Below, one piece after another: positions 35,541-58,169 of a stretch of 64,000 nucleotides of DNA. A program made the translations under genes and the position numbers. Within the stretch, counting starts at the first letter, position 1. Each line of letters opens with the position of its first letter. Origin of the DNA: Phycisphaerae bacterium (GTDB lineage: Bacteria > Planctomycetota > Phycisphaerae > UBA1845 > Fen-1342); assembly GCA_050115495.1 (NCBI GenBank), contig JASFQK010000006.1, forward strand, positions 64,001 through 128,000, written 5' to 3'. The notes under the pieces are model-generated. The model made no database searches. It was not told where the DNA came from and worked only from the letters and a program-made list of their open reading frames with translations.

Positions 35541-37991
35541 CTACTCGTGGTCATCCGCGTCGCCGGAATCACTCGCGGAAGCATCGGGACCGCCGGCAGT
35601 CTGCTCGTCGCCATCGCCGTCCGATGCGCTGGGCTGTGAAGAGGCTTGGCCTTGGTCGTCGCTGTCCGCAGAGCGTTCGTCGACCGCGCCGGCAGCGGCG
35701 CTGGCCGCCGACTGCCCGCCGGCCCGCTCCCACGCCTCGGCATCGAGCCGCGGGAAGCTGATCTGGCACGTGCCCGGCTCGGGCAGACCCACGTGGGCCT
35801 GACCGTTCCGGTCCAACGAACCGCGCCGCACCTCGCCATCCGGACGCGTGATCTCGTAACGCTCGCCCGCCACCGGCTGCCCCGCCTCGTCCACCAGTTC
35901 GATCTCGATCCACGACGTCTGCTGCTCTTCCTCCTCCGCCTCCGCCGGCGCGGCCTCCATCTGCTCGAGCTCCAGCGCCTCCGGCGGCGCGGCTTCCGCC
36001 TGGTACGTCGTATCGTGTCCGGGCACCGCGCCATCCGCGTCCACGGTCGCCTCCGGCGCCGTCAGCGATGCCGCCGAGCCACTGCCCCCCGATCCGCCAC
36101 TGTTGATCTTCACCTGCGCACCGAGGATGGTGACGCCGCTCGCGTCAATCTTGACGAAGTTACCGCCCGCCTTGAGCGTCAACCCGGCACCGGCCTCGAT
36201 AACGATGTTCGCCCCCGCCTTCAGGTAGATGTCACTTGCCGTGTTCTCGCTGTGCTTGCCGCCGATCTCCACAGCGACGTCACCCACGACCTCCAGCGAC
36301 TGGTTGCCACCGATCTTCTCGTTGAAATCGAGCGCAACCTCGCTGTGCTTCTTCTGCTTGACCAGCTCGAACTTCTGTTCCTTGACGGTCAGGTAGTGGT
36401 TATGCCCAACGTTCTCGACACGGTCGCTGTTGACGCGCACGTGCAGATCCTTCTGCGCATACAGCAGGATCTGCTCGCTGCCCACCTTGTCCTCGAACCG
36501 CAGCTCGTTCGTCCCGTCGCCGCCCTTCGAGCTGTTCGTCTTGATGCAGCTCTTCGTCTTTTCATCCGGAAGCGTGTACGGCGGCATCTGGTCGTTGTTG
36601 TAGACCCGCCCCGTGACGATCGGCCGGTCCGGATCGCCCTCCAGGAAATCGACGATCACCTCCTGCCCCACCCGCGGCAGGAACATGATGCCATACTGCC
36701 CACCCGCCAACCCCTGGCTCACCCGCACCCAGAACGAACTGTTCTCGTCGTACACGCCCTCCTGGTCCCAGTGGAACTGCACCTTCACCCGGCCGTACTC
36801 GTCGGTGTAGATCTCTTCGCCCGACGGCCCCACCACGATCGCCGTCTGGCTGCCGCGCACCGTGGGTCGCGGCGTTGTCCGCGGCGCTCGGTAGGGCACG
36901 TCCGACGGAATCGCCGTAATCTCGACCTCGTACCGCAGACCCTGCTCGCCGGCCTCCTCCGCCGCGCTCTGCGGCTGCGTCGCACGGTGCGTCAGGCCGG
37001 TCACCAGGTACTCGCGGTTCAGCGCCTCACTCGGATGCTCGATCAACGTGAACTTGTACCCGGACAGCAACCCCCGCGCCGTCGCGCTCATGTACTGCGT
37101 GTGCCGCGCCGCCTGAAACTCCTGCAGCCGCAGTTGCACGTAGTGCTCGCCGACCGTGCGATCTACGTAGTTGCCGGGGTAATCCACATAATCCAGTGAC
37201 GAGAACACATCCGCCGCCAGGTTCGCCCGCAACTGCGTCTTCGGCTGCTGGAAGTTGAAGGCGTCCAACGTCACCGCCCCCGTCCGAATCTCCTCCCGGT
37301 CCCGCAACCGGTAGACCGCCTCGTGTTCCTGGTCCGGCACCAGACCCTGCGGCGGCCGGAACGGATACTCCGCCTCGTTCGGCGTAGCCACGTGCGCCAC
37401 GTCACTGTCGGCGATCACCATCTTGTGACCGTCGGTGGTGTGCTCGAAGAAGTAGAAGATCCCCTCGTGCTCCATCAGCCGCGAGATGAACGCCAGCTCC
37501 GACTCGCGGTACTGCACCACCATCTCACGCGCCGCGTACGTCTCTTGGAGAGCAAACCGATAGCTGTCCTCCGGGATACCGGCGTCGGCGAACACCTTCC
37601 GGATGATCCCCGGCACCGACATGTCCGAGCAGTTCGTCTCCAGGAACAGCCGGGAGCGGTACCGGTTCGCTAACAACCAGTGAACAGGCACGACTTCCGC
37701 CGCATAGTACGTCAGGCTCGAACCCTCCCCCGTCCGCTCGAACCCTCGCACAATACCGCTCACACACCGCAGCCCGCTGGGCCCGGAGATCTCCAGCAGG
37801 GCCGGCTTGCCGACCACGTCGGCCAGCGCGATGTTCGCCTCGTCCGAGCAGAGCGACACCCGAAAGTGAAACAGCTCGCTCAGACCCTCGCGACCCTCGA
37901 ACGCGGTGACCTTCAGGACGTCGGGCGTTAGCTCACCCGCCCGAAAGGTGAAATCCGCTGTATGCCCCGGGCGGGCGGGAGATGCCGCCAT
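35541..37991 (-). CDS. vgrG: Type VI secretion spike protein VgrG with C-terminal transthyretin-like extension and acidic tail
   Basis: FEGREGLSELF, VQYRESELAFISRLMEHEGIFYFFEH, EEIYTDEYGRVKVQFHWD, FLPRVGQEVIVDFLEGDPDRPIVTGRVYN, NELRFEDK; RBS GGAGGTG before ATG 37991. Confidence 0.97.
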   Translation of the reverse strand: MAASPARPGHTADFTFRAGELTPDVLKVTAFEGREGLSELFHFRVSLCSDEANIALADVVGKPALLEISGPSGLRCVSGIVRGFERTGEGSSLTYYAAEVVPVHWLLANRYRSRLFLETNCSDMSVPGIIRKVFADAGIPEDSYRFALQETYAAREMVVQYRESELAFISRLMEHEGIFYFFEHTTDGHKMVIADSDVAHVATPNEAEYPFRPPQGLVPDQEHEAVYRLRDREEIRTGAVTLDAFNFQQPKTQLRANLAADVFSSLDYVDYPGNYVDRTVGEHYVQLRLQEFQAARHTQYMSATARGLLSGYKFTLIEHPSEALNREYLVTGLTHRATQPQSAAEEAGEQGLRYEVEITAIPSDVPYRAPRTTPRPTVRGSQTAIVVGPSGEEIYTDEYGRVKVQFHWDQEGVYDENSSFWVRVSQGLAGGQYGIMFLPRVGQEVIVDFLEGDPDRPIVTGRVYNNDQMPPYTLPDEKTKSCIKTNSSKGGDGTNELRFEDKVGSEQILLYAQKDLHVRVNSDRVENVGHNHYLTVKEQKFELVKQKKHSEVALDFNEKIGGNQSLEVVGDVAVEIGGKHSENTASDIYLKAGANIVIEAGAGLTLKAGGNFVKIDASGVTILGAQVKINSGGSGGSGSAASLTAPEATVDADGAVPGHDTTYQAEAAPPEALELEQMEAAPAEAEEEEQQTSWIEIELVDEAGQPVAGERYEITRPDGEVRRGSLDRNGQAHVGLPEPGTCQISFPRLDAEAWERAGGQSAASAAAGAVDERSADSDDQGQASSQPSASDGDGDEQTAGGPDASASDSGDADDHE

Positions 37992-38060
37992 GTCGTTCAC
38001 CTCCGATTTCGTCCTGCGCAATGAGACCTGATGCCGGCAAAAAATGAAGAGACACTGCCC

Positions 38061-38113
38061 GGCGAAAGGTAGGAGCCCGTACAAGTTGTATGCCTTTCGC
38101 CCGATAGTGTCAA
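38061..38113 (-). promoter_or_regulatory. Candidate vgrG promoter overlapped by inverted repeats
   Basis: TTGACA (38113-38108), N17, TACAAC; IR GGCGAAAGG (38061-38069)/CCTTTCGCC (38093-38101); TACAA-G-TTGTA (38080-38090). Confidence 0.45.
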
Positions 38114-38234
38114 TGATTTGTACCTGCCCCGACCGCTCATCAAAGCAGGGTATAGACACCTCGCGACGCGCGCTTCCGCGAGTCCCCCCCCCGACCGTCG
38201 AGCGCGGACCCCCACCCCTCTTCCAGGCAGCTCC

Positions 38235-49435: not shown

Positions 49436-52162
49436 TCAGGTGGGGATTTCGACAAGTTGATCGAGGCTGCGTGGCCCGCGGATCTCGCGTACCCCGACGC
49501 GCAGCACGCCGCCGGCCAGCTTGCGAGCCCGCGGCAGGACGTAGCGGCACGTCTGGCGTTCGTTGGGCCGCACGTCGAGGAAGGTCTGTTCGAGCTGCGC
49601 CCGTCCCGGCGCCTGGCAGAAGGCACTGAAACTGACGGTTACGGCCGATGTGTTGGCCAGCGACTGGTCGACGATCAGGTCGTCGCCGTCCCACCGGGCC
49701 CGCGTCTGGACGTCGATGTCGCGTATCCGCACCGACAGTGGGGCCGCCAGTTCGAGCACCACGCCCACCGGGCTGCGCAGCTCGACCTGCACGCCCAGCA
49801 GTCGCTCCATGGCGATTTCCCGTGGCGGCAGCTCCAGGTCGAGCGGGTGGGTCAGCTCCTCCTCGGGAGCCAGGTCGAAATGGACGTCACGCGGCTCCAG
49901 GCGCCAGTCCGGCGGCAGCGAGCAGGTGGCCGTGCCGCGCAACCGCTCGCTGTAATAATTCCGCAGGTGCAGCACGGGACGCGGCTCCGCCACGTGCAAC
50001 TGGAGCCAGTCGGGCCGCACCCGGAAGCTCGCCTGCAACAGCGCCAGCGGCGCGTCAATCTGCTCGATGATAAACGGTTCCGGCGACAGGTGGACCTGCG
50101 CCCGGTGCTCCCGCACCTCCAGCGGCACACGCCGGCCGGTGAGATCCACGGCCACCGGGGCGTCGCCGAGATACAGCTCCACCGGCGCTGTCTGTACTTC
50201 CGCCCGCCACGTCCACAGCACGACACAGGACGACAGCTCGTCGCTGAAGAAGACCGCCAGGCCGTCCTGGTCGGGCAGGGGCATGGCGGCCACGGCCTGC
50301 TTGCCGCCGATGTAGTGGAACAGCGTGCGCAGGGCGATGTACGCCTCGGTCGGCTGCCAGGCCAGACTCCCGCCGCCGCCCGAGATCTCGAACGGCGCGG
50401 GTACGAAGACACGCTCGGCGCCGAGGGCCTTGGCCAGCACCAGCCGGCGGGCCCCTTCGAGGATGCGTTGGTCGTACGCCAGCTCCGCCCGCGGTTGATC
50501 CAGCAGCAGCCACACCGTGGGCAGCCCCACCGGACCGAGCCCGAGCGTATCGGGGGCAGTGTCCGGCGACACGCCGGCCAGCGCGGCCAACTGCGCGGGG
50601 AGTGACCGGGTCGGCCATTCAGACGGCACGGCGATCGAGACCGTGCGCGAGCCGCCGGTCGCCATGGGCGTTTCCGCCGGCTTCAGCGCCGTCACCGTGG
50701 CGGGGATCACGAGTTCCGCGGCGGTGACGAAGCGTTGCAGGTGCCCACGCAGGGTGGTCAGCGTCGGCCCGTCCCACGCATCGGCCCAGGCAGCGTCGGT
50801 CGTCTCGGCTCCCAACTGCCACGTGGTCACCAATCCGCCCAGATACGCCATCATCGGGGCCAAGTGCTGCTGGAAGCCCGTCACGCTGGTGAGGTACGGA
50901 TACGTCGCCCGAGTGTCGAGCTGCTGCGAAGCAGCCTCCGGCGGGAGGAGCACGCCCGCCACGTCGACGTAGCCGGCCACCAGCGTCCGAAAGACGTCGC
51001 GAACCTGGTCGACGTAGGCGACCTTGGAGGGGGTGTCCAACTCGTCCAGCATCGGCACGCCCAGCTTGACGGCGCCGCAGCGCAGCTCGTGAACCAGTTC
51101 ATCCAGGCCTTCGACGCCCGCCATCCGCCAGAGACCGACGTCCACGCCGAGGTCCGCCGATGCGCGCGGCTTGGCCGGCAGATCGGGCAGCACCGCAAAC
51201 CGGACGGTGCGGCACAGCAACGCCGTCTCATCACGACGGAGGTACAGCTCGGCCTCGTACAGGCCGGGGTCCAGCGACGGCAGAGGAATCTCGAGCGGCC
51301 GCACCGACTCGCCCGGCACGTCGTACTGCTCGCGGTGCACCTGCTGCCCTTCAACGTCCGTGATCCGCAATTCCGTGGTCAGCGGGGCCGTCGAAGCGTT
51401 GCGCAAGTCGCAGACAACCCGCACCGTCTCGCCGGGACGAACGAGCCCCGCCGGATCGGACAGGGCCAGGCGCACGCGCGGCAACTGGTAGACGGTGATG
51501 TCGTCGAACCAGACGGTCGCGTCGACCTCCTGGCGGATGATGGGGTCGAGGTGGGCGGGCGACGGCGGGTTCCAGAGCTCGCCCTGGAGGACGTACAGGC
51601 CCAGCCGCAACGCCGTGGCCGTCGGGTAGTCGCCCGAGATCGTCAGCTCGACACGCTGCCAGGGCTCATCGCCACCGGCTGAACCGTCGGAAGTGACGAG
51701 GCGCGTCACGCGGTCGCTGCCGCCGACGTGCCCGCCGGTCGCATCGACCAGGCAGGCATGCACGAAAGCCTGGGCGTAGTGCAGGCTGCGGGCCCTGATG
51801 TAGCCCACGACGAGGTAGTCCGCCCCGAGGACCACCGGCAGGTCGGCGTCGCGGTACTCGTAGGCCACGCTGCCGCCGTTCACCTCGAAGACGAACGACG
51901 GCGGCGCGTCGTGACCGTCCTGGTCATCGAAGCGCCCGGAGGTGTAGCGGGGGAAACCGTCGCCGACCAGACGCTCCCAGTACATGGGAACTTCCTCGTA
52001 GTTCCCCAGCGGGCGTTCGTCGAAGTCGAAGCATTTGACGACCTGGAACAGGCCGGCCCCCACCTCGCTGGCTGGCGAATCCGGGGGCGCGGACGGGTCG
52101 GCCCCGCTCAGGGCCGCCGCCGACAGCAGCGTCGAAATGAGCGCGCAATACCACCGCGACAT
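49436..52162 (-). CDS. Large secreted hypothetical protein (CBM-like, GH-like barrel remnant, Ig-like domains)
   Basis: Signal peptide; FDFDER...VWFDDITV; TWQLGAE; LPPDWRLEP. Confidence 0.75.
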   Translation of the reverse strand: MSRWYCALISTLLSAAALSGADPSAPPDSPASEVGAGLFQVVKCFDFDERPLGNYEEVPMYWERLVGDGFPRYTSGRFDDQDGHDAPPSFVFEVNGGSVAYEYRDADLPVVLGADYLVVGYIRARSLHYAQAFVHACLVDATGGHVGGSDRVTRLVTSDGSAGGDEPWQRVELTISGDYPTATALRLGLYVLQGELWNPPSPAHLDPIIRQEVDATVWFDDITVYQLPRVRLALSDPAGLVRPGETVRVVCDLRNASTAPLTTELRITDVEGQQVHREQYDVPGESVRPLEIPLPSLDPGLYEAELYLRRDETALLCRTVRFAVLPDLPAKPRASADLGVDVGLWRMAGVEGLDELVHELRCGAVKLGVPMLDELDTPSKVAYVDQVRDVFRTLVAGYVDVAGVLLPPEAASQQLDTRATYPYLTSVTGFQQHLAPMMAYLGGLVTTWQLGAETTDAAWADAWDGPTLTTLRGHLQRFVTAAELVIPATVTALKPAETPMATGGSRTVSIAVPSEWPTRSLPAQLAALAGVSPDTAPDTLGLGPVGLPTVWLLLDQPRAELAYDQRILEGARRLVLAKALGAERVFVPAPFEISGGGGSLAWQPTEAYIALRTLFHYIGGKQAVAAMPLPDQDGLAVFFSDELSSCVVLWTWRAEVQTAPVELYLGDAPVAVDLTGRRVPLEVREHRAQVHLSPEPFIIEQIDAPLALLQASFRVRPDWLQLHVAEPRPVLHLRNYYSERLRGTATCSLPPDWRLEPRDVHFDLAPEEELTHPLDLELPPREIAMERLLGVQVELRSPVGVVLELAAPLSVRIRDIDVQTRARWDGDDLIVDQSLANTSAVTVSFSAFCQAPGRAQLEQTFLDVRPNERQTCRYVLPRARKLAGGVLRVGVREIRGPRSLDQLVEIPT

Positions 52163-52249: not shown

Positions 52250-52738
52250 CTAGAACAGCGGCTTGCGGCCGAGCTTTCGCCGAATGGGGACAAACTGGCC
52301 CGCGTGCATCAGCTCGTGCGCGCCAATCATCATGTAGACCGCCCCGATTGTGGCGGCGAAGGCCCGCATGGATTCGGGAGCCGGCTTGTCGAAATCGGCC
52401 TCGGGTCGGGCCGCCAGCGCCGCCAACGTTCCCGCCCGCATCTTCTCCATCAGGGCCAGATACCCGTCCTTCGCCAGGAACTTCGCCGGGTCGTCCGACG
52501 TAGCAGATTCGGGACTGTGGGCCTCGGCGAAGCCCTCGGGGAGAGCCGGCATCTCGTCGCCGATGGCGGCGATCATGTGCTGCTCGGACGTGATCAGGTG
52601 GCCGAGCTGCCAGGCGATGTGGTTCGTACCGGGCACCGAGCGGACGAGCAGCTCGGCGTCGGTCAGGTTGTCCAGGTAGCTGATCGTAACGTGGTGGCAG
52701 AACTCGATCGTGCTGCGGGTGGCTTCTTTCGCGGTCAT
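52250..52738 (-). CDS. DinB family protein
   Basis: NHIAWQLGHL and HELMHAGQ motifs; start at ATG 52738. Confidence 0.88.
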   Translation of the reverse strand: MTAKEATRSTIEFCHHVTISYLDNLTDAELLVRSVPGTNHIAWQLGHLITSEQHMIAAIGDEMPALPEGFAEAHSPESATSDDPAKFLAKDGYLALMEKMRAGTLAALAARPEADFDKPAPESMRAFAATIGAVYMMIGAHELMHAGQFVPIRRKLGRKPLF

Positions 52739-52850
52739 GGTGGTCGCTCCGTTCGAGGGTGGCCCGGGCGGGCCGGCTCGCGCAGATCGGAAACTCGGGT
52801 AACATGATCCCGCGCCGGCATGCGTTTGGAAAGCACGCCCGGAATCGAAC

Positions 52851-53660
52851 ATGACACGGATCCTCGGCATCCTGAACATCACGCGCGACTCGTTTTCCGA
52901 CGGCGGCCGTTACCTGACGCCCGACGCGGCCTGGCAGCACGCGCAGCGGCTCATCGCTGACGGTGCCGACGCCATCGACATCGGGGCCGAATCGACCCAT
53001 CCCGACGCCGAGGACGTGGACGCCGACGAGGAGCTGGCCCGGCTCACGCCCGTGCTGACGCAATTGAAGGTGGCCGGTGTAGCCGTTTCAGTGGACACCT
53101 GCAAGCCGGCGGTGATGCGCGGCGTGCTGAAGCTCGGCGCCGACTACATCAACGACGTCGCCGGCCTCGGCACGCTGGAAGCGGTGGATGCCGTGCGCGA
53201 CAGCGACGCCCGGCTTATCCTGATGCACTCGACGGCCCGCGGCACACGCGCCGAGCGCGTAGCCGTCGACCCCGCCACGATCGTCGAACGCATCGTCGCC
53301 TTCTTCGCCGACCGGCTGGAGAGTCTGGAGCGGGCCAGCATCGACCGCCGCCGCGTGATTCTCGATCCCGGCATGGGCTTCTTCCTCGGCGATCGCCCGG
53401 AAGCCAGCCTCGCCGTGCTATGCGACATCGACCGGCTGAAATCGCTCGGCTGCCCGGTGCTGATCTCCACGTCGCGCAAATCGTTCATCGGCGCGCTGCT
53501 CGGCACCGACGACCAGCCACGACCGGTGGCCGAGCGCGGCGCCGGCACGCTGGCGACCGAACTCTGGGCCGCGGCTCACGGCGCCGACTACCTGCGAACT
53601 CACAACGTGCGCGCCCTCCGCGACGCGCTGGCCATCTGGCAGGCTCTCGAAAGGAGCTAG
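52851..53660 (+). CDS. folP: Dihydropteroate synthase, Sul-like
   Basis: GILNITRDSFSDGG, IDIGAEST, INDV, ILMH, LDPGMGFFLG, SRKSF, LRTHNV. Confidence 0.95.
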   Translation: MTRILGILNITRDSFSDGGRYLTPDAAWQHAQRLIADGADAIDIGAESTHPDAEDVDADEELARLTPVLTQLKVAGVAVSVDTCKPAVMRGVLKLGADYINDVAGLGTLEAVDAVRDSDARLILMHSTARGTRAERVAVDPATIVERIVAFFADRLESLERASIDRRRVILDPGMGFFLGDRPEASLAVLCDIDRLKSLGCPVLISTSRKSFIGALLGTDDQPRPVAERGAGTLATELWAAAHGADYLRTHNVRALRDALAIWQALERS

Positions 53661-53663
53661 ATC

Positions 53664-54542
53664 ATGAATCCGTTCCGCGGCACGCTCACCGCCCTGGTCA
53701 CGCCCTTTCGCGACGGACAGCTCGACCTCGACGCCCTCGACGCCCACGTCCAACGCCAGATCGACGCCGGCGTGGACGGCCTCGTCCCCTGCGGCACCAC
53801 AGGTGAATCGCCCACGCTCTCGGTGGAGGAGTATGCCCAGGTCATCCAGCACGTGGTTCGCACGACCGCCGGCCGCGTGCCCGTCCTCGCCGGCGCCGGC
53901 ACCAACAGCACTTCGCGCACGTTGACGCTCGCGCAGACGGCGACGGAATGCGGCGCGACCGGCCTGCTCCTCGTCGCCCCCTACTACAACAAGCCGCCAC
54001 AGGAAGGGCTCTACCAACACTTCTCGACCGTCGCCCGCAGCACCCCCCTGCCGATCGTGCTCTACAACATCCCCGGTCGTTGCGGCGTCGAGATCGCCAT
54101 CGACACGCTCCGCCGGCTCTTCGACGACCACGAGAACATCGTCGTGGTCAAGCACGCCACTGGCAACGTCGCCAGCGCAGCCGACCTGCGAGCAACGTGC
54201 GGGATCGACGTTCTCTCCGGCGACGATCCGCTCACGCTGCCGCTCATGAGCGTCGGCGCCGTCGGCGTCATCAGCGTGCTCTCGAACATATTTCCGACCG
54301 CGGTCAAACGACTAACGACGGCCGCCCTCGCCGGCGACTACGCCGCCGCCCTGGCCGCGCACCGGGCAACGTACCGTCTCGCCTGGGCCCTGCTCTCGCT
54401 CGAAACGAACCCGATCCCGATCAAAACCGCGATGGCCCTACGTGGCTGGTGCCGTAACGAATTCCGCCTGCCACTGTGCCCGCTGTCCGCCGCGCAGCGT
54501 GAACGGTTGGAGGCGTTGCTCGCCGAAAGCGACCTGAGCTGA
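53664..54542 (+). CDS. dapA: 4-hydroxy-tetrahydrodipicolinate synthase
   Basis: TALVTPF, CGTTGES, PYYNKP, LYNIPGR, Schiff-base Lys in VVKHATG, SGDD, NPIPIK. Confidence 0.95.
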   Translation: MNPFRGTLTALVTPFRDGQLDLDALDAHVQRQIDAGVDGLVPCGTTGESPTLSVEEYAQVIQHVVRTTAGRVPVLAGAGTNSTSRTLTLAQTATECGATGLLLVAPYYNKPPQEGLYQHFSTVARSTPLPIVLYNIPGRCGVEIAIDTLRRLFDDHENIVVVKHATGNVASAADLRATCGIDVLSGDDPLTLPLMSVGAVGVISVLSNIFPTAVKRLTTAALAGDYAAALAAHRATYRLAWALLSLETNPIPIKTAMALRGWCRNEFRLPLCPLSAAQRERLEALLAESDLS

Positions 54543-54585: not shown

Positions 54586-55926
54586 ATGGACCTGTTCGCC
54601 GAACAGCGTAGGGCGGCTCTCGAACGCGTGCAGCCGCTGGCCGTGCGGATGCGACCGCGGACACTGGCCGAGTTCGCCGGCCAGGAGCACTTCCTTGGTG
54701 AGGGCAAGCTGCTCCGCCGGCTGCTCCAGGCCGACCGCCTGAGCAGCGCGATCTTCTACGGCCCGCCGGGGTGCGGCAAGACGACACTCGCGCAGGTCAT
54801 CGCCGGCCACACCCGCGCCGCCTTCGAAACGCTGCACGCTGCCGAAGCCGGCGTGAAAGACGTCCGCCGCGTGCTCGACGCCGCTCATCGGCGACTCGCC
54901 GGCGACGGGCAGCGAACGGTCCTCTTCCTCGACGAGATCCACCGCTTCAACCGCGCCCAGCAGGACGTCCTGCTGAACGACGTCGAATCGGGCGTGTTGA
55001 CGCTAATCGGGGCAACGACCGAAAACCCCTTCTTCTCGGTCAACAGCCCGCTCGTCTCGCGCAGCCAGGTCTTCCACTTCGAGCCGCTGGGTGGCGAGCA
55101 GATCATTGCCCTGTTGTGCCGCGCCCTGACCGACAAGGAGCGCGGCCTCGGCAAGACCGGTGCCCGCGCCGATGACGACGCCCTGGCTCTCATCGCCGAA
55201 TGGGCTGACGGCGACGCCCGCCGCGCCCTCAACGCGCTCGAAGTCGCGGTGCTGTCGGCCGACGGTGGCACGCCGCACGTCACCCGCGCCGTGGCCGCTG
55301 ACTCGATGCAGCGCAAGGCTGTTCTCTATGACGCCAGTGGCGACACGCATTACGACGTGGCCTCGGCGCTGATCAAGAGCATGCGCGGCAGTGATCCGGA
55401 CGCCGCGCTGTATTGGCTGGCCCGCATGCTCGAAGGTGGTGAGGACCCGCGCTTCATCGCCCGCCGCATCGCCATCTGCGCCGCGGAGGACATCGGCAAC
55501 GCCGACCCGCAGGCGCTGATCGTCGCCGCGGCGGCGGTGCAGATCACCGAGCTCGTCGGCCTGCCCGAAGCCGAATACCCGCTGGCCCAGGCCGCCGTGT
55601 ACCTGGCCTGCGCGCCGAAATCGAACGCCGTAACGATGGCGATCCACGCCGCCCGGGAAGAGGTGCGTCAGGGACCGACGCTGCCGGTGCCGCCGCACCT
55701 GCGCGATGCGAGTTATCGGGGCGCCGCCCGGCTGGGACACGGCGAGGGCTACGCGTATCCGCACGACTTTCCGGGCGGAATCGCGCCGCAGGACTACCTC
55801 CCCGAGCCGCGCAGCTATTACAATCCCACCGACCGGGGGCACGAGGCCCGCATCGCCTCCTGGCTGCGTGAGCGGCGGAAGGCCCGCGCAGCCCGGCCAG
55901 ATCAGGCGGCACCGAGACAGCCGTGA
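54586..55926 (+). CDS. rarA: Replication-associated recombination protein A (AAA+ ATPase)
   Basis: PLAVRMRP, GPPGCGKTT, DEIHRFNRAQQD, GATTENP, SALIKSMRGSDPDAA, EDIGNADP. Confidence 0.96.
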   Translation: MDLFAEQRRAALERVQPLAVRMRPRTLAEFAGQEHFLGEGKLLRRLLQADRLSSAIFYGPPGCGKTTLAQVIAGHTRAAFETLHAAEAGVKDVRRVLDAAHRRLAGDGQRTVLFLDEIHRFNRAQQDVLLNDVESGVLTLIGATTENPFFSVNSPLVSRSQVFHFEPLGGEQIIALLCRALTDKERGLGKTGARADDDALALIAEWADGDARRALNALEVAVLSADGGTPHVTRAVAADSMQRKAVLYDASGDTHYDVASALIKSMRGSDPDAALYWLARMLEGGEDPRFIARRIAICAAEDIGNADPQALIVAAAAVQITELVGLPEAEYPLAQAAVYLACAPKSNAVTMAIHAAREEVRQGPTLPVPPHLRDASYRGAARLGHGEGYAYPHDFPGGIAPQDYLPEPRSYYNPTDRGHEARIASWLRERRKARAARPDQAAPRQP

Positions 55927-56495
55927 ACAAGCGGGAATTGCGTCAGGAGCTGCGTCGGCGGCTGGCGGCCATCACGCCAACCGAGCTGCAGCGCCGCAGC
56001 GCGCAGGCCACCGACAGGCTCTGCGCCCTCGAAGGCTGCGAGCCGATGGACGTGGTCATGATTTTCCTGTCGATGCCCTACGAGATCGACACGGCACCGA
56101 TCGCCCTGCACGCCTGGAGCCGCGGCAAGCGCGTGCTGGCCCCGCGCGTCTCGTGGGAACAGCGGCGCATGCTGCCGATCGAAATCCACTCGCTCGACAC
56201 CGACGTGCAGCCGGGGCTCATGGGGCTGCGCGAGCCGGTCGAGGGCATGCCCGTGCCCGTCTCGGACATCGACCTGGTGGTCGTCCCCGGGCTGGGCTTC
56301 GACGAACAGGGGAATCGGCTGGGGCGCGGGCGCGGCTTCTACGACCGCTTCCTGTCGCACCGGGACTTTCGGGGCTTGAGTTGCGCGCTGGCCTTTGAAG
56401 AGCAGGTCGTGGAGTGCGTACCCGTTGGCGAAGCGGATGTACGCGTCGACATGCTCGTGACCGACGTGCGGGTTCGACAGTTTTCACGCCAGTAA
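55923..56495 (+). CDS. 5-formyltetrahydrofolate cyclo-ligase
   Basis: KRELR, DLVVVPGLGFDEQGNRLGRGRGFYDRFL; GTGA overlap with rarA. Confidence 0.95.
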   Translation: MNKRELRQELRRRLAAITPTELQRRSAQATDRLCALEGCEPMDVVMIFLSMPYEIDTAPIALHAWSRGKRVLAPRVSWEQRRMLPIEIHSLDTDVQPGLMGLREPVEGMPVPVSDIDLVVVPGLGFDEQGNRLGRGRGFYDRFLSHRDFRGLSCALAFEEQVVECVPVGEADVRVDMLVTDVRVRQFSRQ

Positions 56496-56504
56496 TCACC
56501 GCTC

Positions 56505-58169
56505 ATGAGCACAACCATTATCCGTCGGCGTTACCTGACCAACTTCCAGCATCACCGCCTGCCCCACCTGTTCACCGACACGCTCGTGCTCGGTACCGGC
56601 GTGGCCGGCCTGACCGCCGCCCTCGAAGCCGCCGAAGGCGGCGAGGTGCTGCTGGTCACCAAGGAGCACGCCGAGCAGTCGGCGACGGTCTACGCCCAGG
56701 GCGGCATCGCCGCCGCCGCCACCGACGCCGGCGACAGCCCCGCCCGCCACGCCGCCGACACGATCACCGCGGCGTGCGGCCTCGGTCACGAGGACATCAT
56801 CAACCTGGTCGTCGGCGCCGCCCCCGCCTGCATCGAACTACTGAGCCACTGGGGCGCCCGCTTCGACCAGGAGAACGGCCACCTCGCTCGCGGGCAGGAG
56901 GGCGGGCACACCACTCGCCGCATCGTCCACGCCAGCGACGCCACCGGCCGGGAGATCGTCCGCGTCCTGCTCGAACGGGTCCGCCGCCATCCGCGCATCC
57001 GCCTGTTCGACGGCTGCTTCGCCATCGACCTGCTGACGCACGAGGCGGGCGTCGTCGGTGCCGTCACGTTCCATCCGAAGTACGGCCACCAGATGCTGCG
57101 GGCCACTACAACCATCCTCGCCTCGGGCGGCGCCGGCCGCATCTACCGCGAGACGACGAACCCCGCGGTGGCCACCGCCGACGGGCTGGCCATGGCCCTG
57201 CGAGCCGGAGCCGTGCTGCGCGACGTCGAGATGGTCCAGTTCCATCCGACCACGCTGTACATCGCCGGTGCGGCGCGTGCCCTCATCAGCGAAGCGGTCC
57301 GCGGTGAAGGCGGCCTCCTGGTCAATCGCGCCGGCCAGCGCTTCATGCCGGATTACGACGAGCGCGCCGAACTCGCCCCGCGCGACGTCGTCAGCCAGGC
57401 GATGCTGACCGAGATGCGGCGCGACCAGGCCGCCTGCGTCTACCTCGATGTGCGGCACTTCCCGCCGGGGCGCTTCGCCGAGCGCTTCCCCAACATCGCC
57501 CGCCTCTGCATCGATTTCGACATTCGCCCGGAACGCGACCTGATCCCCGTGCGGCCCGCTGCGCACTACATGGTCGGCGGCGTGGTCGTGGACACGCAGG
57601 GCCGGACCAGCCTGCCCGGCCTGCTCGCCTGCGGCGAGGTTTCCTGCACCGGCCTGCACGGGGCCAACCGGCTCGCCAGCAACTCGCTGCTCGAAGGCCT
57701 CGTCTACGGGCAGCGCGCCGGACGTCTGGCCGCCGAACGTGCCGGCAGCAACGGCCGCGTCTTCCAGTCGCCGGCCATCAGCCACGTCCTGCCGCAGTCG
57801 CCGCGCTCGGCACTCGACCTCGAGGACGTGCTCAGCAGTCTGCGCAGCCTGATGTCCCGCCGCGTCGGCGTACAGCGCGATGCCGGCGAGCTCGACGAAG
57901 CCCGCGAGTTGATCCAGTTCTGGGGCCGCTACGTGATGGACAAGGTCTTCGACGAGCCGATGGCCTGGGAAACGCAGAACATGCTCACCGTCGCCCTCTG
58001 CGTCGCCACGGCCGCCCTCGAACGCCGGGAGTCGCGCGGCGTGCATTATCGCACCGACTTTCCGCAGACCGATCCGGCGTGGCAGCGGCACATCGACCTC
58101 GCCCTCGTGGCCGAGCAGCTCGAGGTTTCGACATCCCCTGTCGGTAAATCCGCAGACGGCGTCCGATAG
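56505..58169 (+). CDS. nadB: L-aspartate oxidase
   Basis: GTGVAGL, AQGGIA, EGGH...RIVH, QFHPT, LISEAVRGEG, ELAPRDVV, GLHGANRLASNSLLE, ESRGVHYR. Confidence 0.96.
   Translation: MSTTIIRRRYLTNFQHHRLPHLFTDTLVLGTGVAGLTAALEAAEGGEVLLVTKEHAEQSATVYAQGGIAAAATDAGDSPARHAADTITAACGLGHEDIINLVVGAAPACIELLSHWGARFDQENGHLARGQEGGHTTRRIVHASDATGREIVRVLLERVRRHPRIRLFDGCFAIDLLTHEAGVVGAVTFHPKYGHQMLRATTTILASGGAGRIYRETTNPAVATADGLAMALRAGAVLRDVEMVQFHPTTLYIAGAARALISEAVRGEGGLLVNRAGQRFMPDYDERAELAPRDVVSQAMLTEMRRDQAACVYLDVRHFPPGRFAERFPNIARLCIDFDIRPERDLIPVRPAAHYMVGGVVVDTQGRTSLPGLLACGEVSCTGLHGANRLASNSLLEGLVYGQRAGRLAAERAGSNGRVFQSPAISHVLPQSPRSALDLEDVLSSLRSLMSRRVGVQRDAGELDEARELIQFWGRYVMDKVFDEPMAWETQNMLTVALCVATAALERRESRGVHYRTDFPQTDPAWQRHIDLALVAEQLEVSTSPVGKSADGVR

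Follow-up and report, generated by a model that had tools for sequence, protein, structure and literature searches.

A folP gene of a Phycisphaerae bacterium (GTDB lineage Bacteria; Planctomycetota; Phycisphaerae; UBA1845; Fen-1342) was analyzed computationally, and it is likely that this gene, which encodes a dihydropteroate synthase (DHPS) of the Sul type, is the sole working folP of the organism, is inherited within the host family, and specifies an enzyme predicted to be insensitive to sulfonamides. The gene lies in a window of 64,000 nucleotides, which is the whole stretch of DNA that was analyzed (NCBI GenBank assembly GCA_050115495.1, contig JASFQK010000006.1, positions 64,001 to 128,000 of the forward strand), and positions are given within that window. 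Few resistance genes are as widespread as those against sulfonamides. A preliminary description of this DNA had suggested that the gene is one more intrinsic reservoir, or a relative, of the sul genes, and the proposal is supported by the clade in which the gene falls, by its presence as a sole copy, and by its vertical housekeeping context; what is described here is an apparently unreported natural reservoir of the Sul enzyme type, carried as a normal housekeeping gene.

Chromosomal folP genes of the Sul type are already known from Rhodobiaceae and Leptospiraceae (2019), and the host family, which is well sampled (65 of 71 other genomes), stands as a third natural holder beside these two bacterial families named in print. 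The Phycisphaerae lineage appears to be unreported. A search of the full-text literature, supplements apart, did not turn up any description of a Sul-type folP from Planctomycetota, and the strings 'planctomyc' and 'phycisphaer' had no occurrences in PMC6335563 and PMC10328974, again supplements apart. PMC10328974 mentions Gly-Phe-Phe in hundreds of database DHPS sequences and calls its significance unclear; these sequences may include Planctomycetota entries.

The folP product and its relation to Sul enzymes

The open reading frame (P0001) encodes a 269-residue DHPS that matched the TIGR01496 profile over residues 4-266 with 274.4 bits (cut-off 162.6) and the PF00809 Pterin_bind profile with 226.3 bits (cut-off 25.5). 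The strings quoted in the preliminary description, namely DSFSDGGRYLTPDAA (residues 13-27), IVAFFADR, PEASLAVL, GTLATEL, and LDPGMGFFLG, were all found in the translation, with DPGMGFFLG corresponding to D172-G180 at the nucleotides first reported. A phmmer search against the Protein Data Bank (PDB) scored Sul3 (237.6 bits), Sul2 (233.2 bits), and Sul1 (191 bits) above the best canonical DHPS (182.4 bits), and identities were 46-50% to Sul2 and Sul3 and 41% to Sul1, with E. coli FolP lower at 35-36%. The NCBIfam allele models NF000294, NF000295, NF000296, and NF033502 (Sul1, Sul2, Sul3, and Sul4) all scored below their cut-offs, at 192 of 600, 245 of 575, 241 of 475, and 130 of 600 bits, respectively. 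The echo of Sul2 and Sul3 noted at the outset was borne out, but the identity to Sul1-3 is only 41-50% and the gene is no sul allele.

Alignment placed two extra residues after DPGMG, so that the protein reads GMGFFLG where canonical enzymes read GIGF--GK or GFGF--GK. The nine residues of DPGMGFFLG are identical in Sul2 and Sul3, and Sul1 has FFLS at the end of the segment. Met175, Phe177, and Leu179 align with Sul2 Met177, Phe179, and Leu181; Phe177 occupies the position of Sul1 F178, Sul2 F179, and Sul3 F177, Leu179 replaces the canonical Lys, and Met175 replaces the canonical Phe or Ile. The motif is not a product of chance, because the same residues occur in Sul2 and Sul3 and because the insert is present in all host-family loci read and absent from those read in other families of the same order and from 23 of 29 phylum loci. 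Close homologues carry the source names of Phycisphaerae and Planctomycetota metagenome-assembled genomes (MAGs). In a set of 46 close homologues, residues N101, D172, and K210 were invariant and align with the Sul1 pterin ligands Asn101, Asp173, and Lys212, while at the FF pair only the second Phe (F178) was invariant. In addition, N9, S14, F15, and S48 align with the loop 1 and loop 2 residues Asn12, Ser17, Phe18, and Ser52 of Sul2.

An AlphaFold2 model of the folP product, built on the 46 homologues, had a predicted local distance difference test score of 92.6 and a predicted template modeling score of 0.90, and by this model the protein is predicted to adopt a TIM-barrel fold like that of solved DHPS enzymes. 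A Foldseek search with the model returned Sul3 and Sul2 at ranks 1-4, the best being Sul3 (8scd) with template modeling (TM) scores of 0.94/0.96 and a root mean square deviation of 1.4 Å. There were at least 500 matches at E <= 0.001, and those listed were all DHPS or Sul chains with query-normalized TM scores of 0.83-0.94. The model is helical at residues 176-178.

Sul2 and Sul3 (PDB 7S2J/7S2K and 7S2L/7S2M/8SCD; Venkatesan et al. 2023) share with the Phycisphaerae enzyme both DPGMGFFLG and the Met, Phe, and Leu of helix alpha6. They are plasmid-borne, whereas the Phycisphaerae gene sits in the chromosome and is not mobile. Its product falls far short of the NCBIfam cut-offs and has, relative to Sul1-3, a loop that is five residues longer (residues 219-223, TDDQP). 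Sul1, which is integron-borne, has the same insert (GMGFFLS) and belongs to the same clade. Sul4 is also a sulfonamide-resistant DHPS, but its allele model gives the Phycisphaerae protein only 130 bits. The laboratory-evolved E. coli DHPS insFG carries a Phe-Gly insertion of the same length at the same position in alpha6; it is, however, a canonical enzyme plus a duplication (DPGFGFGFGK, as it can be reconstructed from the description in PMC10328974), whereas the whole Phycisphaerae protein belongs to the Sul lineage and has the canonical Lys replaced by Leu. Canonical FolP, of E. coli and of other families of the same order, shares the TIGR01496 family, the fold, and the ligands of pterin and pyrophosphate, and differs in having DPG[IF]GFGK without an insert, in its identity of 35-44%, and in forming a separate clade.

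The host genome is a 5.97-Mb draft in 85 contigs and is 92% complete. It contained one match to TIGR01496, the folP gene studied here, and searches with TIGR01496 and Pterin_bind found no second folP in this 92%-complete assembly, so that the check for an additional canonical copy, which had been proposed at the start, gave a negative answer. The only other Pterin_bind match was within a 1245-residue frame, which is probably MetH (methionine synthase). HPPK, FolC, and two PabB/TrpE-like genes were present, so that the organism has a folate pathway in need of this enzyme. Because folP is a sole copy with conserved pterin and pyrophosphate residues, and because the other parts of that pathway are encoded as well, its product is presumably catalytically competent and the working DHPS of the organism.

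Predicted response to sulfonamides

The functional prediction leans on characterized enzymes. In PMC10328974 the alpha6 Phe is described as lying near the carboxylate of para-aminobenzoic acid (pABA), a place where a sulfonamide would collide with it through both its sulfonamide group and the substituent; replacement of this Phe by Gly or its deletion abolishes resistance, Leu in place of the canonical Lys also adds to resistance, and E. coli evolved under sulfanilamide became resistant through the Phe-Gly insertion at the same site. In PMC6335563 the chromosomal motif-bearing FolP proteins of Parvibaculum and Leptospira raised the sulfamethoxazole minimum inhibitory concentration (MIC) of E. 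coli from 8 to at least 512, and FolP proteins without the motif gave no rise. From these two studies we infer that the Phycisphaerae folP product would be insensitive to sulfonamides.

In the mechanism proposed here, the short helix alpha6 beside the pABA site is two residues longer than in canonical DHPS (GMGFFLG for GIGF--GK); pABA would still bind and sulfonamides would be sterically excluded. The bacterium would then be intrinsically insensitive to these drugs. The gene is not a recent acquisition but one passed on vertically across the whole host family in a conserved DinB_2/folP/dapA setting, and it takes the place of the canonical folP of the sister families.

Several points weigh against this reading. 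The identity to tested enzymes is only 41-50%. Among the 22 family loci that were read, the key position is Phe in 15, Leu in six (L008, L014, L017, L018, L019, and L021), and Met in one (L026); since Phe is not fixed in the family, selection for the insert is not strictly tied to this residue. In PMC10328974, insFG is described as increasing resistance, and the insert alone may not give resistance at the full Sul level. Finally, the assembly is an 85-contig draft at 92% completeness, and a second folP could lie on unassembled DNA. The natural Leu and Met variants would themselves test how strictly the Phe is needed.

It could be that the protein is Sul-like in sequence and functionally ordinary, being still inhibited by sulfonamides, with the insert serving pABA affinity, loop dynamics, or discrimination against a natural pABA analogue. 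The Leu or Met at the key position in seven of the 22 loci would fit such a role, and so would the age of the insert: sulfonamides are man-made drugs, and by the published argument the insert is far older than they are (PMC6335563), so drug resistance cannot be the trait that was selected. Nevertheless, we regard this explanation as unlikely, since both of the tested motif-bearing chromosomal FolP proteins, which are about as distant from Sul1-3 as the Phycisphaerae enzyme, gave an MIC of at least 512 (PMC6335563), all three alpha6 residues that were shown to matter are present in the Phycisphaerae enzyme, and the predicted model superposes on Sul3 at 1.4 Å.

The predicted insensitivity bears on studies of environmental resistance. 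In metagenomic surveys, chromosomal genes of this kind may be miscounted as 'sul' or missed, depending on the cut-off. In PMC11380404 (2024), Phycisphaeraceae were enriched on sulfonamide-containing micropollutants, no homologue with more than 50% identity to sul1-4 was reported in them, and the mechanism was sought elsewhere. With its identity of 41-50%, a Sul-type folP lies just below that threshold and may be an overlooked explanation; note that the family in that study may differ from the host family.

Inheritance, phylogeny, and the root of the Sul clade

In the host family, the matches in 65 of the 71 other genomes were all at 50-72% identity, and no match in the canonical range was found in any of the 71; the six genomes without any folP match were 70-92% complete. 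The two-residue insert was present in all 22 family loci that were read. In other families of the same order, all 16 genomes had a match at 37-44% identity, and the six loci read all had DPGIGFGK without the insert. One of these 16 genomes (G039) contained a canonical folP plus a Sul-type copy (L011, contig C160) on a 4.5-kb contig with the DinB_2 and dapA neighbors typical of the host family, and this contig is probably mis-binned. In a sample of 300 genomes from the phylum, none of them from the host family, the Sul type was detected by tblastn in six genomes of three families at 215-240 bits, and when 29 loci were read the 23 that followed these six were canonical and without insert.

Gene order was also shared. 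A DinB_2 homologue adjoins folP in 17 of the 22 host-family loci and dapA follows it in nine, and neither neighbor was found at the six canonical loci of the same order or at the 29 phylum loci. This shared synteny supports vertical inheritance of folP within the host family. In three family members (G010:C227, G436:C29, and G468:C18) the folP match was split in two although the frame, of 323-353 residues, is open throughout, which may reflect an internal insertion.

The preliminary description had placed the gene among housekeeping genes with no mobile element nearby, and both statements held, the second for the region scanned. The neighbors were identified by Pfam, and the gene's presence is family-wide with conserved order. 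No transposase or integrase Pfam match was found among open reading frames of at least 230 residues between 36 and 64 kb of the window. The contig carrying folP, of 183.8 kb, is chromosomal with housekeeping neighbors, and the reading frames scanned gave no sign of integron, ISCR, or plasmid carriage; in contrast, ISAba1, ISVsa3, and IS26 adjoin sul2 and sul3 on plasmids. The GC content of folP (0.68-0.70) is ordinary beside that of its flanks (0.67-0.71). One explanation to be weighed is that a recently acquired mobile sul, be it a sul1-4 allele or a new mobile sul, had landed in the chromosome. The top plasmid matches by tblastn were indeed sul2 and sul3, and Sul-type genes do cross phyla, as in Lewinella sp. 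W8. Yet the modest identity to Sul2 and Sul3, the scores far under the allele cut-offs, the family-wide occurrence with conserved neighbors, the ordinary GC content, the status of the gene as the only folP of the genome, and the absence of transposases and integrases from the reading frames scanned make such an event highly improbable. Recent mobile acquisition and contamination by a foreign contig were both rejected on synteny, family-wide presence, and composition.

Phylogenetic trees were calculated from the tblastn-aligned part of each locus, after the motif columns and the three columns following them had been dropped, with Sul1-3 as the Sul references and Sul4 left out. In two quick trees (105 and 145 rows, LG+G4) all insert-bearing rows formed one clade, with a Shimodaira-Hasegawa-like approximate likelihood ratio test (SH-aLRT) support of 99 in both. 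For a more careful tree, 39 rows that were redundant or nearly identical to others were removed; it comprised 106 rows and 250 columns and was calculated under LG+C20+F+G4 with posterior mean site frequencies; its bootstrap was not fully settled (correlation 0.966) and many rows had a deviant amino acid composition. Here all 68 insert-bearing rows, including Sul1-3 and the Phycisphaerae folP, were again in one clade, with support of 100/100 (ultrafast bootstrap/SH-aLRT), separate from canonical FolP, both that of the same order and that of four other phyla. The phylogenetic check suggested beforehand came out on the side of the Sul-type assignment.

Within the careful tree, the host-family sequence from genome G021 was sister to all other Sul-type rows (92/93), and the main host-family clade, which includes the folP of the window, had support of 88/85. 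The Leptospiraceae formed a clade with one unclassified MAG (98/95). A Planctomycetota family, here called f58, grouped (85/82) with a crown consisting of Sul1, Sul2, Sul3, Alphaproteobacteria, Myxococcota, Spirochaetia, Bacteroidota, and a second Planctomycetota family, f34 (100/100). The canonical FolP of the same order stood apart (100/98), and the backbone among canonical groups was not resolved. Host-family sequences formed a basal grade in all three trees, and in the 145-row tree the canonical sequences nearest to the Sul clade were from Planctomycetota, weakly supported (SH-aLRT 88).

The root of the Sul clade was scanned by attaching the outgroup in turn to 50 branches within that clade, while the topologies of ingroup and outgroup were kept as in the careful tree, and comparing the results by the approximately unbiased (AU) test under LG+F+G4; the outcome depends on an ingroup backbone that is itself weakly resolved and on an outgroup without Chlamydiota or Verrucomicrobiota. 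Eight of the 50 branches were in the 95% set. The maximum likelihood (ML) root was on the terminal branch of G021 (p-AU 0.985). Not rejected were roots that split the host family and its allies, 28 rows in all, from the remaining sequences (p-AU 0.17), a root between a group of 33 rows and f58 plus crown (0.167), one on the Leptospiraceae stem (0.14), and four others placed on branches of basal family sequences and of the group formed by the family and its allies (0.05-0.07). The crown stem (p-AU 0.017) and the f58 stem (0.019) were rejected as root positions, as were all tested branches inside the crown, which holds Sul1-3, or inside the Leptospiraceae (p-AU < 0.05). Constrained fast searches gave AU values of 0.036-0.050 when Leptospiraceae were made the sister group of all other sequences, 0.052-0.070 when the crown was, and 0.21-0.22 for monophyly of the Planctomycetota Sul type; these searches were poorly optimized, one looser constraint being 39 log-likelihood units worse than its own special case, and the values were not relied on.

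The safe reading of these data is that the gene of the host family is deep-branching, at or near the base of the Sul clade, and that neither the mobile genes nor the alphaproteobacterial group gave rise to it. On the origin of the Sul enzyme type, the rooting result offers a testable alternative to what has been published: PMC6335563 named Rhodobiaceae and Leptospiraceae as holders of the motif and proposed an origin in Leptospiraceae. It is possible, though rather doubtful, that Sul-type DHPS arose in Planctomycetota, with the host family as the earliest branches, and that the Leptospiraceae and crown enzymes stem from transfers out of that phylum. This idea is put forward because of the basal grade in three trees, the ML root on a family branch, and the rejection of roots on the crown stem and of roots internal to the crown or to the Leptospiraceae. 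If true, it would revise the published scenario and would explain why Chlamydiae, another phylum of the Planctomycetes-Verrucomicrobia-Chlamydiae group, were the nearest canonical relative in the 2019 tree.

A competing account, to which we give not quite an even chance, is that an ancestor of the host family took its Sul-type folP by ancient lateral transfer, from Leptospiraceae or another donor, and lost the canonical gene, making the family a recipient and not the source. Gene position speaks for it: ftsH adjoins folP in three of seven canonical Planctomycetota loci with flanks scanned, as in E. coli, while in the host genome the gene after ftsH is a convergent GGDEF gene and folP is missing from this place, which means that the Sul-type gene occupies a different site. 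Nor do the Sul clade and the canonical clade of the order form sister groups, and the root on the Leptospiraceae stem was among those retained. The ML root on the branch of one family member, the basal grade, and the Planctomycetota sequences found nearest, weakly, to the Sul clade in the 145-row tree point the other way. As for an origin in situ from the order's own canonical folP, the lack of a sister relationship and the position away from ftsH neither support nor exclude it.

Wider distribution and gene neighborhood

One genome per species was scanned for stretches encoding exactly DPGMGFFL by back-translation, which yielded at least 120 stretches and shows presence, not frequencies. Among the 120 matches listed, 116 were DHPS genes, 37 of them at least 95% identical to Sul1 or Sul2 (mobile copies). 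This leaves at least 79 divergent chromosomal Sul-type genes, and 75 of those among the matches listed were assigned to seven phyla: Pseudomonadota (41, mostly Alphaproteobacteria), Planctomycetota (11), Spirochaetota (11), Myxococcota (six), Bacteroidota (three), Bacillota (two), and Binatota (one), with four unclassified. Five genomes with a Sul-type gene were searched further. The Leptospiraceae, Parvibaculum, and Myxococcota genomes had a Sul-type copy only, Corynebacterium propinquum had two canonical DHPS copies plus sul1, and Lewinella sp. W8 (L049/L196) had a canonical DHPS plus a Sul3-like one that is 59% identical to Sul3.

The nearest published parallels are the FolP proteins of Parvibaculum lavamentivorans (Rhodobiaceae) and Leptospira interrogans (Leptospiraceae) (Sanchez-Osuna et al. 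2019; PMC6335563), which are likewise encoded by sole chromosomal housekeeping folP genes with the insert. With the motif excluded they group with Sul1-3, as the Phycisphaerae gene does, and like it they are ancient and ameliorated to host composition. The Phycisphaerae gene differs in belonging to another phylum (Planctomycetota) and in being flanked by DinB_2 and dapA, where the published genes are flanked by glmM, or by lipoprotein and TPR genes. Its product is 49% identical to a Parvibaculum MAG enzyme (MAFFT) and, for Leptospiraceae MAG enzymes, 32-39% (tblastn) or 38% (MAFFT) identical. The published MIC data concern the Parvibaculum and Leptospira enzymes.

Some other Sul-type loci are recorded here. 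A Paludibacteraceae MAG (L103) has an enzyme 71.9% identical to Sul3 and sister to it (100/98), and with the canonical and Sul3-like copies of Lewinella sp. W8 this suggests acquisition of Sul3-like genes in Bacteroidota; a locus in a Treponema MAG (L112) was noted along with these. Two Parvibaculum sp. MAGs contain close, chromosomal-looking relatives of sul2: L131 (JAUSLL010000003.1), with a DHPS 91.7% identical to Sul2 over 193 residues, and L113, 76.6% identical over 261 residues and sister to Sul2 (100/99). The Sul-type genes L163 and L165 of Planctomycetota family f34 lie inside the crown with Myxococcota and Deltaproteobacteria, apart from other Planctomycetota, which suggests a separate acquisition; one of the two has Tyr for the key Phe (DPGMGYFLG).

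Table 1. The Sul-type folP gene, its alpha6 segment, and neighboring genes in the window.
Feature	Coordinates	Strand	Basis
DinB_2-family gene, divergent, 5' of folP	52250..52882	-	PF12867, 66 bits
folP, Sul-type DHPS	52851..53660	+	TIGR01496, PF00809; best solved relatives Sul3/Sul2
DPGMGFFLG, alpha6 segment with two-residue insert	53364..53390	+	Alignment with Sul1-3, E. coli FolP, and same-order canonical FolP
dapA (4-hydroxy-tetrahydrodipicolinate synthase family, DHDPS)	53664..54542	+	PF00701, 289 bits
rarA/mgsA-type AAA+ ATPase, housekeeping	54586..55926	+	PF12002, 230 bits
5-Formyltetrahydrofolate cyclo-ligase	55923..56495	+	PF01812, 138 bits
FAD-binding L-aspartate oxidase/succinate dehydrogenase-type flavoprotein, housekeeping (putative nadB)	56505..58169	+	PF00890, 322 bits

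The genes around folP are given in Table 1. As noted in the preliminary description, folP ends 3 nt before dapA (stop codon ending at 53660, dapA starting at 53664), and because of this spacing the two are probably co-transcribed. The cyclo-ligase gene is on the same strand 2.3 kb 3' of folP, so that two folate-related genes stand in one short same-strand run. On the other side, the listed GTG start of the DinB_2 gene overlaps folP by 32 nt; matches to DinB_2 homologues in family loci begin at query residues 1-69, mostly 30-49, and the true start is probably further in. A 908-residue open reading frame at 49436-52162(-), between a PSP1-domain gene and the DinB_2 gene, had no Pfam match at E <= 1e-4. 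An 872-residue VgrG-like protein is encoded at 35541-38159(-), some 15 kb upstream of folP; it matched Phage_GPD with 265 bits, has gp5 C-terminal trimerization and OB domains, and is a component of a type VI or contractile-injection system.

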